The notes under the pieces: model-generated
Seen by the model: the letters and a program-made list of their open reading frames with translations, nothing else
The model's database searches: none
What the model was told of the DNA's origin: nothing
Shown: one piece after another, positions 2,917 through 51,068 of the stretch
How positions within the stretch are numbered: position 1 is the stretch's first letter
How the letters are laid out: every line of letters starts with the position of its first letter
Assembly (NCBI GenBank): GCA_964291215.2
Contig: OZ219791.1
Location: 2,624,001-2,688,000, forward strand
DNA from: Alphaproteobacteria bacterium
Lineage (GTDB): Bacteria; Pseudomonadota; Alphaproteobacteria; MPNO01; UBA830
DNA: 64,000 nucleotides
Direction of reading: 5' to 3'
Translations under genes and position numbers: made by a program

Positions 2917-3462
2917 ATGCAGCAGATTGTCGAGTTCACCGGCCGGACGGCGTCCGACAGGCTCCTGCAACGTGTCGTGAACATGCTGGACCGCTCGCTG
3001 GGTATCGTCCTTGCGGTCCTCATGTTCGCGATGATGGTGCTGACGTTTTTCGATGTCGTCGGTCGCCAGGGCTTCAACGCTCCGATCAGCGGAAGCAACG
3101 AGCTGACCGAGATCGCGATGGGCTTTGTTGTCTATGCGGGCCTGCCCCTGGTCTGCATACGCCGCGAGCACATCACGATCGGACTTCTCGGAAATCTGCT
3201 GCGCGGGCGGGTGCGACGGTTCCAGCATGTCGCGCTTGATCTCGTGCTTGCGGCGGCGACCTTCATCTGGGCGCGCCAGGTGTGGCTCCAGGGCGAATCC
3301 CTGCTCAATTCCAATGCGGTGCTGATGTTCCTGCAAATCAGCGTCGCACCCTACGTCTTCGCGATGAGCGGCCTGACCTTCTTCTCGTCGTTACTCTTCC
3401 TTCTCCTCGCTTGGTGCCGCCTGCGCGGTGCCGAGCCGGGACCTCCGGTCGCAACGGGCTAG
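2917..3462 (+). CDS. dctQ: TRAP transporter small permease (DctQ)
   Basis: Four hydrophobic segments, DVVGRQGFNAPISGSNEL, REHITI. Confidence 0.85.
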   Translation: MQQIVEFTGRTASDRLLQRVVNMLDRSLGIVLAVLMFAMMVLTFFDVVGRQGFNAPISGSNELTEIAMGFVVYAGLPLVCIRREHITIGLLGNLLRGRVRRFQHVALDLVLAAATFIWARQVWLQGESLLNSNAVLMFLQISVAPYVFAMSGLTFFSSLLFLLLAWCRLRGAEPGPPVATG

Positions 3463-4742
3463 TAGTCCACCGGCATTGTATTGATGGTTTTGTGGGTAGT
3501 ATTTCCGTGTCGGCGTTCGTTGGAATCCGGACAGTGCCGATATCCACACGGGCAGATGCCGAACAGGCAGGCAGCCGCAGCCCCATGCGCAGGTCCGGAC
3601 AACGGGCATGCCCGCAGGTCTTCGGCGCAATGACAGGAGCAGCGCATATGGCCAACTCTCGGGGCAGGAAGCTCTACCGCGTGACCCTTTCGGCGCAGGA
3701 GCGCCGGGATCTGAAGGCGATTGTCGACGGCACCGGGGCTGCCTGGCGTCGGCGCCGGGCACAGGTCCTGATGCTGGCTGACGAGGGGGCGCTCGGCTTG
3801 TCGATGCCGACATTGCGCAAGGGCTGGGCATCGGCACGGCGACGGTCGAGCGTTTGCGCAAGCGCTGCGTTCTGGAGGGGCTGGACGCCGCCCTCAGCCG
3901 CAAGGAGCAGGTGAACCGTCGGCCGAAACGGCTGGACGGGGCGATGGAAGCGAAGCTGGTCGCCCTGGCCTGCTCATCCCCGCCCGAGGGCTGTGCCCGC
4001 TGGACGCTGAAGCTGCTCGCCGGCCGTCTGGTGGAGATGGAGATCGTCGAGCGCATTTCGGAAGAGACGGTCAGGAAGACGCTAAAAAAAAGGAGATCAA
4101 GCCGTGGCTGAACTGGTGCATTCCACCGCACCGGAGCGCACAGTTCGTGGCAGCGATGGAGGATGTGCTTGACATTTATCAGCGGGACTTTGCCAGGGAC
4201 GAGGTGCTGGTGTGCATGGATGAAACCAGCCGGCAGCAGACGAAGGAAACCCGCATCCCCCGGTCAGCCGGAGGTGGTCGACTATGAATATGAGCGCAAC
4301 GGTACGGCCAACCTCTTCATGGCCTTTGCGCCCAACGAAAACTGGCGCACGGTGAAAGTCACCGACCGTCGCGGGACTGGGCGCACTTCATCCGGGAGCT
4401 TGCCGACGACCATTTCCCCGACAAGAAGATCGTGCTGGACAATCTGAACACGCACAGTCACTGTATGAAGCCTTCGAGCCCGAGGAGGCGGGTACGAAAG
4501 CGGTTCGAGTTTCGCTATACGCCGAAGCATGGAAGCTGGCTCAACATGGCCGAGATCGGTGCGCTGTCGTGGCAGTGCCTTCGGCGACGCATTCCCGACC
4601 GCGACACCATGCTGCGGGAGACCGTGGCGTGGGTCGAGCGTCGCAATGCGGCCGATGTCACTGTCGACTGGCGTTTCACGACGAAGGATGCCCGGACGAA
4701 ACTGAAGTCACTATATCCTTCAATCCAATAATGCCAGACTAC
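3462..4742 (+). mobile_element. IS630-family element, degraded (copy 1)
   Basis: Ends GTAGTC..GGCATT / AATGCCAGACTAC, TA duplication within CTAG; transposase pieces RWTLKLLAGRLVE, DYEYERNGTANLF, TPKHGSWLNMAEI; A-run slippage site at 4084-4091. Confidence 0.88.
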
Positions 4743-5015
4743 TAGGTCTGCCGTGTAGACATAGATCTGCCGTATCGACTCACGCCTACTGATCACGAAT
4801 CGTTTTTCCTGACGGCGTTCGAGGCAGACATCTTCTCTTGCCACCTTTACTTGCTCGCTGCCGACGACCGGATGTGCGGGCTCCGATTGGCAAGAAGCGG
4901 TCCGGTCTTCGTCTTGAACTCCACTTTCCGGCCCGCGCCGACATCGCGTGTCAACCGTGCTGGCCGGTGGTGCAGGTTCTGTTGGCGGCCTTTCCATTCC
5001 GCCGGAAATTTCCGT

Positions 5016-48819: not shown

Positions 48820-49201
48820 CACTTTCTCCTTGGGTATATTGCGCCCGCGCAACGGGCCGTATTGCGACGATTGGTCGCTCGGCACCATCCCGTGCCTGTC
48901 CGTCCGGTTGGCCGCTGCCACTATAGGAAAGGGATTCTGACGACGCAATGCGCGGGATAACTGGCCGGGCGCGAACATCCGCGTGAGCAGAAAGTCGGAT
49001 TGCGGTAGCTGAAACCCTGCTCGTCGGGTCTTGTCGTGATCCGATCTGCTGCCGGCGTCCTGTCCCTGGCTGCTGTGATTTCCGGAACCGGTGCCCCCTC
49101 GGTGCGGGCCGGGAGGTGCTCCCGCTACCGCTCCGCGACGTTGCTGCTGGACGCGACGACGCGGCGGACGTTTCCGACGTGTGCGTGGTGTGTTGTGCGC
49201 A

Positions 49202-49851
49202 GGTACTGTAACTTGATGTCTGGAAATTTGTCTGAGGTTTGCGCTTTGAGGCGTTTCACTGGGGGGCTAGCCCCCCAGTGAAACGCGGCGCCATCGTGCT
49301 ATCCCATGGGGTTGGAAAACCTTCATGGAGGAAGCGAATGGACCTGCGACACACTACGACGATCGGGACTGTTTTGGAACATCTGATCGCAAACGGAGCA
49401 ACGGATCTGGGGCGGGTCTTTGGCCAGCTCTTCGAGCTTGCGATGCAAATCGAGCGCGAGCAGTACTTGAAAGCGGGCCACCGGACGCCGGAGCGACAGG
49501 GCTATGCCAACGGCTACAAACGGATCGACACCCCTGTCGGGACTGTTACCGTTCAGGTGCCAAAGACGGCCGGTCACGGGGACGACCCCCCCAGTCGCTT
49601 GAACGCGGCCAGCGATCTTCTCGCGCCGTAGCCGAGATGTACATCAAGGGTGTTTCCACGCGGCAGGATGTAATGCGCGAGTTCGGGAGCCTGTCCTCTT
49701 CTCAGGTCAGCCGGGCCACCAGGTTGCTCGATGAAGAACTCACCGCCTGGCGCAACCGGCCCCTGATGAAATACCTGATCCTGGATGCGCGCTACGAAAA
49801 AGCCCGCCATGACGGCGTTGTGCGCGATGTTGCAGTGCTCTCTCCCTCGGC
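49202..49851 (+). mobile_element. IS256-family element, 5' half
   Basis: Same left end and sequence as the adjacent copy; QGYANGYK, EMYIKGVSTR, YLILDARYEK. Confidence 0.82.
49251..49286. repeat. Perfect 36-bp palindrome in IS256 leader (also 49901-49936)
   Basis: GCGTTTCACTGGGGGGCTAGCCCCCCAGTGAAACGC is its own reverse complement. Confidence 0.9.
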
Positions 49852-51068
49852 GGTACTGTAACTTGATGTCTGGAAATTTGTCTGAGGTTTGCGCTTTGAG
49901 GCGTTTCACTGGGGGGCTAGCCCCCCAGTGAAACGCGGCGCCATCGTGCTATCCCATGGAGCTGTAAACCTTCATGGAGGAAGCGAATGGACCTGCGACA
50001 CACTACGACGATCGAGGCCGTTTTGGAACATCTGATCGCAAACGGAGCAACGGATCCGGGGCGGGTCTTTGGCCAGCTCTTCGAGCTTGCGATGCAAATC
50101 GAGCGCGAGCAGCACTTGAAAGCGGGCCACCGGACACCGGAACGACAGGGCTATGCCAACGGCTACAAGCGGATCGACACCCCCACTGTTACCGTTCAGG
50201 TACCAAAGACGGCCGGTCACGGGGACGACCCCCCAGTCGCTTGAACGCGGCCAGCGATCTTCTCGCGCCGTAGCCGAGATGTACATCAAGGGTGTTTCCA
50301 CACGGCAGGATGTAATGCGCGAGTTCGGGAGCCTGTCCTCTTCTCAGGTCAGCCGGGCCACCAGGTTGCTCGACGAAGAACTCGCCGCGCAACCGGCCCC
50401 TGATGAAATACCTGGATGCGCGTTATGGAAAAGCCCGCCATGACGGCGTTGTGCGCGATGTTGCAGTGCTCTCGGCCATCGGAACAGGGGCTGCAGGCGC
50501 GTTCCGGGGCTCTCTGTGGCGCTCTCCGAGGCCGAGGTCCATTGGAGGGCCTTTCTGGAAAGCTTGCAAGCCCGTGGCCTGCATGGTACGACCTTCATCG
50601 TCTCGGATGCCGGGCTGAAAGCGGCGCGGTGCCAGCGCTGCCAATTCCACCTGGCACAAAACGCCGTGCACCGAACAACGACATCAGGAAACGTATCGGA
50701 AAACAGCTCGGAGCCATGCGTCCTCACTCCAAACCGCCGAGGCTGAACCGGGCGCCCTCGTGGCCAGCTATCGCGACAAGCGTCCAGGTTTCCTGGCTGG
50801 AAAACAATGCGGGGCTCGCTGTCTTCACCTTGCCCGATGCTTACCGCAAACGTATGTGAACCTCGAACGGCATCGAGCGACCGATCCAGCAAGAACTCAA
50901 GCGGCGCACCTCCAAAGTCAGGGTCTTTCCGAACCTCGCCTCGTTGGAGCGCCTCTCAACCGCGGTCCTCATCGACGAAAAATGGGAAACCGAAACCAAG
51001 ATCAAATGGGAACAGCTCGATGACTGACAGCTTCACGACAATTTCCAGACAATCAGGTTGCGTAATCC
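49852..51068 (+). mobile_element. IS256-family element, degraded
   Basis: IRs containing TGTCTGGAAAT at both ends; SEAEVHWRAFLESLQARGL, QRCQFHL, QELKRRT. Confidence 0.85.

Follow-up and report, generated by a model that had tools for sequence, protein, structure and literature searches.

Deletions of 5-7 bp scale with copy number and are shared between copies of mobile elements in an alphaproteobacterial genome

The window analysed here, a stretch of 64,000 nucleotides on contig OZ219791.1, lies in the 6.15 Mb, two-contig genome of an uncultured alphaproteobacterium (coded G000), the FabF of which has its best match, at 73%, in Alphaproteobacteria, and holds, among single-copy genes, remnants of IS66-like, IS630-like and other insertion sequences (ISs), two group II introns and an AAA-ATPase/nuclease gene (Table 1). 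Its repeats belong to families of 35-190 copies, and about 27% of G000 is sequence with a local 20-mer copy number of at least 6; genome-wide there are about 190 matches to the IS66-like element, 57 near-full IS630 copies and 53 near-full introns. The copies of these families differ by deletions that are locked to a narrow range of lengths, have a clear polarity, begin at a preferred motif, become denser with copy number and are shared without the neighbouring single-nucleotide polymorphisms (SNPs). An earlier note on this DNA, made from its letters alone, had reported scattered small deletions in the multicopy elements, which we confirm; the lock on 5-7 bp is the point that it missed. All of its quoted examples were located (intron motifs at 7331 and 18300, an IS630 motif at 21965 on the minus strand, and an IS66-like one at 20117 versus 5388/9040), and intron copy 2 is 212 bp shorter than copy 1 (1501 versus 1713 bp) with no large block missing, its largest single deletion being 14 bp. 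The AAA-nuclease gene, which had been listed among the eroded repeats, is present once in the window and differs from its three close relatives by only a few 5-6 bp gaps per pair.

The size lock was measured in 40 random copy pairs per family. Gaps of 5-7 bp made up 643/853 of those between intron copies, 369/589 between IS630 copies, and 270/319, 390/591 and 68/100 in three further families. The spectrum has a sharp peak at 5-7 bp and a minor second one at 11-14 bp, the latter representing two neighbouring events. To establish the ancestral state we joined, for each family, the segments kept by at least two copies into a 'union'. Stop-free frames of 435, 338 and 489 codons were regained in this way, and homologous elements in G001, a congener with 93% identity of which about 0.75 Mb out of 5 Mb was compared, retain the segments, the gaps being almost exclusively on the G000 side. 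Moreover, 655 distinct deletions of 5-8 bp stand against 2 tandem duplications (103 segments being retained by a single sampled copy). The polarity is therefore that of deletion. Relative to their union, intron copies show a median of 38 deletions and 18 substitutions, and the five measured families have lost 7-16% of their length.

Table 1. Repeat elements and a single-copy deletion site in the window.
Feature	Position	Strand	Remarks
IS630-like copy	3459..4746	+	6 deletions of 5-8 bp and 1 of 9-20 bp versus family union; weak DDE_3 match below cut-off
IS66-like remnant (~190-copy family)	5035..6572	-	Name taken from the earlier note, without Pfam confirmation on this copy; 5-7 bp variants in read contigs
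Second IS66-like copy	6973..10242	-	Interrupted by group II intron into 6973-7213 and 8927-10242
Group II intron copy 1	7214..8926	+	1713 bp (union 1861 bp); 22 deletions of 5-8 bp; reverse transcriptase frame broken; Rfam RF02005, RF00029
Two nested elements ('escapee'), one with Tnp_DNA_bind match	11988..14526		None of the 11-31 short-segment losses of relatives diverged by 3-5%
Group II intron copy 2	18203..19703	+	1501 bp; 42 deletions of 5-8 bp and 8 of 9-20 bp, largest 14 bp; Rfam
IS66-like copy	19754..21344	-	Repeat-family match
IS630-like copy 2	21776..23008	-	14 deletions of 5-8 bp, 2 longer
6-bp deletion site in single-copy DNA	26203		Relative to congener G001; X2 contig gap-free, X3 and X6 contigs show a 6-base gap across the stretch
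IS66-family remnant	27548..30027	-	PF03050
IS-like repeat, 48 near-full copies	30677..31884		10 deletions of 5-8 bp
IS-like repeat, 35 near-full copies	32632..33985	+	25 deletions of 5-8 bp, 3 longer
468-bp repeat, 40 copies	34005..34472		5 deletions of 5-8 bp
AAA-ATPase/PD-(D/E)XK nuclease gene, 4 close copies	34512..36161	+	Lightly affected
IS256/Mutator-family pieces	49202..51067	+	PF00872; tandem pair differs by deletions of 6, 5 and 6 bp

The pattern recurs in a second genome of the genus, G002 (71-73% nucleotide identity; 400 kb of its 6.1 Mb scored), where gaps of 1 to 8 bp, counted by copy, number 67, 26, 13, 9, 211, 237, 40 and 1, corresponding to 0.121 per substitution. G001 and the other genomes that could be scored are negative: G004 shows 0.007 per substitution, G003 shows none on thin data (241 substitutions only), and G030, G042 and G049, IS-rich relatives in the same order that served as controls, show 0.006, 0.001 and 0.007 with an ordinary 1>2>3 spectrum. 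In G050 and G047 diverged copies were too few for scoring. The size spectrum departs from a power law in G000 and G002 and follows one in the three IS-rich controls, and IS load alone is therefore insufficient to produce the pattern.

The earlier note had named a consensus artefact at collapsed repeats as a real alternative, and we consider an error of sequencing or assembly very unlikely. Such an error would be easier to entertain in view of the nature of the read data: platforms of the runs are unrecorded, the evidence is at the level of read-derived contigs, the three main runs all come from one study, no contig links a deletion to unique flanking sequence, and X2, identical to the window across 3,837 single-copy bases, may be the source sample. 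However, the deletions are present in the read-derived contigs of three runs, which argues against a polishing artefact. Both alleles occur there at depths of about 1,000-7,000, mostly with the junctions of the window, and at window position 5359 a summed depth of 2,617/59,188 in X1 retains six bases absent from the window. X3, a distinct strain that differs from the window at 26/3,733 single-copy bases, carries the same alleles, and single-copy DNA from these runs is clean. Nor would an artefact be expected to give G002 a different length mode and motif, or to leave IS-rich relatives with an ordinary spectrum. A further sample, the sponge metagenome X5, yielded short, diverged pieces only.

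The density of these deletions depends on repetition. Across 332 sampled windows of 500 bp, in which the largest families are under-sampled, 5-8 bp gaps per substitution rose from 0.042 (2 copies) through 0.063 (3-5) and 0.129 (6-15) to 0.311 (16 or more), whereas 1-4 bp gaps stayed between 0.039 and 0.071 in the same classes. The earlier note had described single-copy genes as clean. This is mostly so, but there is a weak trace: in 378 in-frame single-copy genes six-base deletions number 23 in G000 versus 2 in G001 (three-base deletions, 4 versus 10), frameshifted single-copy genes 35 versus 3, and single-copy intergenic DNA has 40 versus 16 deletions of 5-8 bp against 7,428 substitutions. 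In the window, such sites lie at 26203 (6 bp), 41179 (5 bp) and 46038 (6 bp). This excess on the G000 side indicates that the source process acts across the whole genome, though weakly, and that G001 lacks it. At face value, single-copy DNA and repeats do not have equal ratios: the intergenic figure is about 0.011 per substitution on the G000 lineage, versus 0.31 in the highest copy class, though it would be diluted if the process started after the split from G001, and the densest broken single-copy genes have a few deletions per kb, versus about 14 per kb in each copy of the high-copy families. Single-copy events showed no replichore bias (13 versus 10 among the 23 orientable of 70), and for want of it, weak as this test is, the idea of a lagging-strand primer footprint was dropped. 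Of the two interpretations originally offered, a process that erodes repeats is thus partly supported, and a plain deletion bias fails on the 5-7 bp peak and on the copy-number gradient.

The junctions suggest a preferred start. The earlier note had mentioned microhomology, and this is indeed enriched in G000, where at least 3 bp are found at 224/832 junctions versus 69 expected; 263/832 nevertheless have none, and in G002 microhomology is at chance level, with 232/443 junctions devoid of it. Microhomology is therefore secondary. In G002 the excised piece begins with AT in 208 of 386 cases (34 expected) and with ATC in 119 (14.5 expected), equally in sense and antisense and with no codon phase, for which reason a link to transcription or codons was dropped. 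G000 has a looser motif (RTC in 101/321 versus 60; cross-validated score 0.30 versus -0.03), which is present also in its single-copy deletions. Single-copy genes show an antisense trend of 13 versus 2 that has no null behind it and is not used as support. A C at position -4, a TopA-like feature, is probably due to codon periodicity, and hairpins at junctions were unenriched. We found no excess of polymorphism within deletable spans (p 0.52 and 0.96), and mismatch-triggered cutting was rejected on that ground.

How the deletions are distributed among copies sets them apart from other variants. Of the 5-8 bp alleles 21-36% are private to one copy, versus 58-73% of SNPs and 49-68% of 1-4 bp indels; in the intron family 8 deletions versus 105 SNPs are private. 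Intron nearest neighbours separated by 1-5 SNPs differ by 4-30 deletions, and the SNP tree demands no fewer than 691 origins for the 83 intron deletion alleles. Deletions are more homoplastic than SNPs in 4/5 families. Derived deletion frequencies are skewed upward (53/144 above 0.8), and a bias toward the deleted allele was found. With increasing copy number, private deletions per private SNP increase only modestly, from 0.036 to 0.073, while the load per copy climbs from 2.7 to 14.5 per kb, so that the repeat-specific step looks like a spread of existing deletions and not chiefly extra new mutation.

Four families with subfamilies 8-10% apart allowed the spread to be viewed at the level of single junctions. 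In these, 45 of the 65 deletions of the minor subfamily have a junction identical to that in the major subfamily, and the identical junction arises even where the subfamilies differ in the removed bases. The flanking diagnostic SNPs are nevertheless of the copy's own type (31/33 at 4-6 bp, 40/41 at 7-10 bp); at 1-3 bp they were switched in 4/17 cases versus 0/12 in undeleted controls. Along the elements, high-frequency deletions become scarce toward the IS termini: at the 11 ends scored, each 25 bp of the outermost 75 bp or so holds 0.02-0.06 of them per copy, compared with mostly 0.11-0.29 elsewhere. New alleles and SNPs are undepleted there.

The reading that we favour, with somewhat better than even confidence, is that real 5-7 bp deletions are seeded genome-wide at a low rate and then spread one-way between homologous copies. 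According to this model, a putative nuclease would first excise 5-7 nt anywhere at a low rate, on either strand and with no need of microhomology. One end of the piece would be set by a favoured start, which is AT(C) in G002 and is relaxed to purine-pyrimidine-C in G000. In a second step a deleted copy would pair with an undeleted one, probably via RecA, and the longer strand would loop out 5-7 nt. This loop, just above the efficient range of MutS, may be cut out and the strand closed by a repair patch no longer than about 3 bp, leaving nearby SNPs untransferred. As the longer allele would always lose, each copy would accumulate the deletions of its whole family, the load would follow copy number, and families would be ratcheted into non-function, while single-copy DNA would be exposed to the first step only and filtered by selection. 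Bacterial mismatch repair (MMR) is efficient on loops of up to about 4 nt (PMC2504288, PMC8235422); the lower size bound fits this limit, and the upper bound and species-specific motif point to an enzyme footprint. One may further speculate that this is a dedicated repeat-inactivating system, a bacterial counterpart of fungal repeat-induced point mutation (RIP), in which a loop-excising nuclease with a species-specific cut preference would seed the 5-7 bp deletions, push them through all multicopy families and so sterilise ISs and group II introns according to their copy number; we regard this stronger proposal as possible but doubtful.

Several points weigh against the two-step model, and some of them are those on which its rivals build. 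MMR still repairs loops of 5-8 nt, less efficiently, and could co-repair them (PMC2504288). Among the candidate families searched, no enzyme was pinned down. The single-copy pseudogenes are few, undated and called by a crude gene finder, the start motif is missing from private alleles (0.05 +/- 0.09), and in one of the five families deletion homoplasy is no higher than that of SNPs (0.75 versus 0.74). Intact copies stand beside eroded families, as at window positions 11988-14526 and in eight identical IS66 copies of G002; we read these as probable recent arrivals, and the nested elements in the window, which are likely of this kind, are handy natural intact references.

The doubling of the private-allele rate with copy number also speaks for homology-triggered recurrent cutting, in which pairing or copy-derived guides mark repeats and independent cuts of fixed geometry fall at predisposed sites, with no deleted donor. 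The oriented start motif and the SNPs that are not co-transferred likewise favour it, and overlapping alternative alleles are clustered beyond chance (113 versus 64 +/- 7), which suggests a part for predisposed sites too. We nonetheless find this explanation rather unlikely. The motif is weak in G000 and insufficient, since 79-90% of RTC sites are unused throughout whereas some alleles are found in more than 90% of copies; the same junction appears despite different deleted bases; deletable spans, as said, show no polymorphism excess; and Argonaute, NucS and Ku (in G000) and ATP-dependent ligase (0/5 genus genomes) were not found.

Another possibility is that no repeat-specific process exists, and that a genome-wide 5-7 bp mutator acts under relaxed selection, its products being inherited through dead elements moved in trans, such as the introns inside IS66-like copies, and through ordinary recombination. 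Consistently, the signature occurs in single-copy DNA, the introns do sit in an IS66-like target, and SNPs themselves are highly homoplastic, with four-gamete violations of 32-54%. The depletion at termini could be explained by selection for mobilisable ends, and broken non-terminal ends have no edge effect (ratio 1.0-1.2). However, in the same copies the 5-8 bp deletions are shared and the 1-4 bp indels and SNPs mostly private, copies that are otherwise almost the same are set apart by many shared deletions, the frequencies of derived deletions lean toward high values, and SNP diversity at the termini is unreduced. We therefore hold this account to be unlikely.

As for the enzymes that the two-step model would call for, mutS, mutL and recA have open frames in G000, in which NucS, Piwi (Argonaute) and Ku were not found; TopIB, ATP-dependent ligase, RecT and Y1 transposase were found in 0/5 genus genomes. 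MutS, MutL, Cas1, RNase HII, a UvrC-type GIY-YIG protein, UvrD and PolA are common to positive and negative genomes, and reverse transcriptases occur in G000, G001 and G002 and therefore do not track the trait. Three known routes were rejected: non-homologous or microhomology end joining, as Ku (G000) and ATP-dependent ligase (0/5 genomes) were not found and many junctions lack microhomology; mismatch cutting by NucS/EndoMS, as nucS was not found in G000 and the deletions are not centred on polymorphic sites; and TopIB/ribonucleotide deletion, as TopIB was not found and RNase HII is present. Gabija, too, was set aside: it is intact in G000 only (1/53 order genomes with the query used), and its look-alike in G002 is an EcoRII-and-helicase locus, in which two helicase genes come after an EcoRII-type restriction-modification pair (L343:5410-8474). 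The intact Gabija genes (GajA, GajB; G000:C2:746582-750374, L342:3582-7374) adjoin an E1-like gene cluster.

Other loci of G000 may be recorded beside these. Two CRISPR-Cas loci were recognised by eye, each with a Pfam-confirmed Cas1: one with a Cas4-Cas1 fusion, Cas2 and Cas3-like genes (G000:C1:581478-587300), the other with a Cas9-like gene of 1043 aa, Cas1 and Cas2 (G000:C2:2063990-2068434). A multicopy gene resembling DNA adenine methylase (by eye; no Pfam match obtained) is split in the window by the IS66-like element and its intron (6609-6964 and 10245-10562), and a relative of it adjoins a young, intact 12-copy IS66 family (G000:C1:141635-143716). Three group II introns lie head to tail at G000:C2:1320040-1324961, and 6/53 copies directly precede another intron start; the sense strand of the intron family is on the inferred leading strand in 42 of 48 orientable copies. 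The window also encodes a Smr-domain endonuclease, of a common family (62209-62985), and a Sel1-repeat protein with a peptidoglycan-binding domain (50807-52324), the 108-bp internal repeats of which are 76-86% identical and gap-free.

If the copying step is real, bacteria own a brake on mobile DNA that senses copy number and requires neither a guide RNA nor prior knowledge of the element. Any multiplying family would then be eroded, which offers a testable route to how bacteria clear bursts of insertion sequences. The model would also define a mutational signature of a new kind and point to a nuclease able to remove 5-7 nt loops almost patch-free, with possible use in editing. The availability of positive genomes (G000, G002) and negative ones (G001, G003, G004, G030, G042, G049) makes gene-level mapping feasible. 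In the literature searched, which was largely open-access, we found no bacterial precedent, nor any description of a size-locked, motif-anchored deletion mutator, that is, of the first step alone.

Known systems resemble parts of this pattern. The deletion bias of bacterial pseudogenes (PMC6054270) is alike in that deletions exceed insertions and some lie at microhomologies without Ku/LigD, but its sizes follow a power law with an excess of multiples of three, whereas here 5 and 7 bp are as prominent as 6, lengths of 1-4 bp are rare, and the load follows copy number. MutS-independent large loop repair, as treated in the passages of PMC2504288 that were consulted, concerns loops above about 4 nt, which escape efficient bacterial MMR and are dealt with by a poorly defined pathway; these passages describe no 5-7 nt size lock, motif or genome-scale erosion. 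Fungal RIP, to which the earlier note had loosely compared the process, is alike in a load that depends on repetition, as found here, and in the destruction of mobile elements. RIP is a context-specific C-to-T hypermutation, carried out by a dedicated cytosine methyltransferase-like enzyme upon homology sensing without recombination. The analogy holds for the outcome only: the lesion here is a deletion, C>T changes amount to 5-8 per 1000 with no increase with copy number and no next-base preference, a weak, low-rate signature reaches single-copy DNA, and alleles are shared between copies. Gene conversion would predict identical indels across paralogs against the tree, as found in 4/5 families in the homoplasy test. 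Conversion tracts also carry flanking substitutions, a feature that G000 lacks (31/33 own-type at 4-6 bp). In the closest parallel, the deletion-biased nonallelic gene conversion of Drosophila and primates (Assis and Kondrashov 2012, PMC3280953), the spread of deletions between paralogs likewise outpaces their origin and the copies shrink jointly; the bias there amounts to about 3.4-fold, for deletions of various sizes and in eukaryotes, whereas the bias in G000 is found in a bacterium, runs almost entirely one way, is confined to 5-7 bp and is anchored to a motif, with SNPs beyond about 3 bp left in place.

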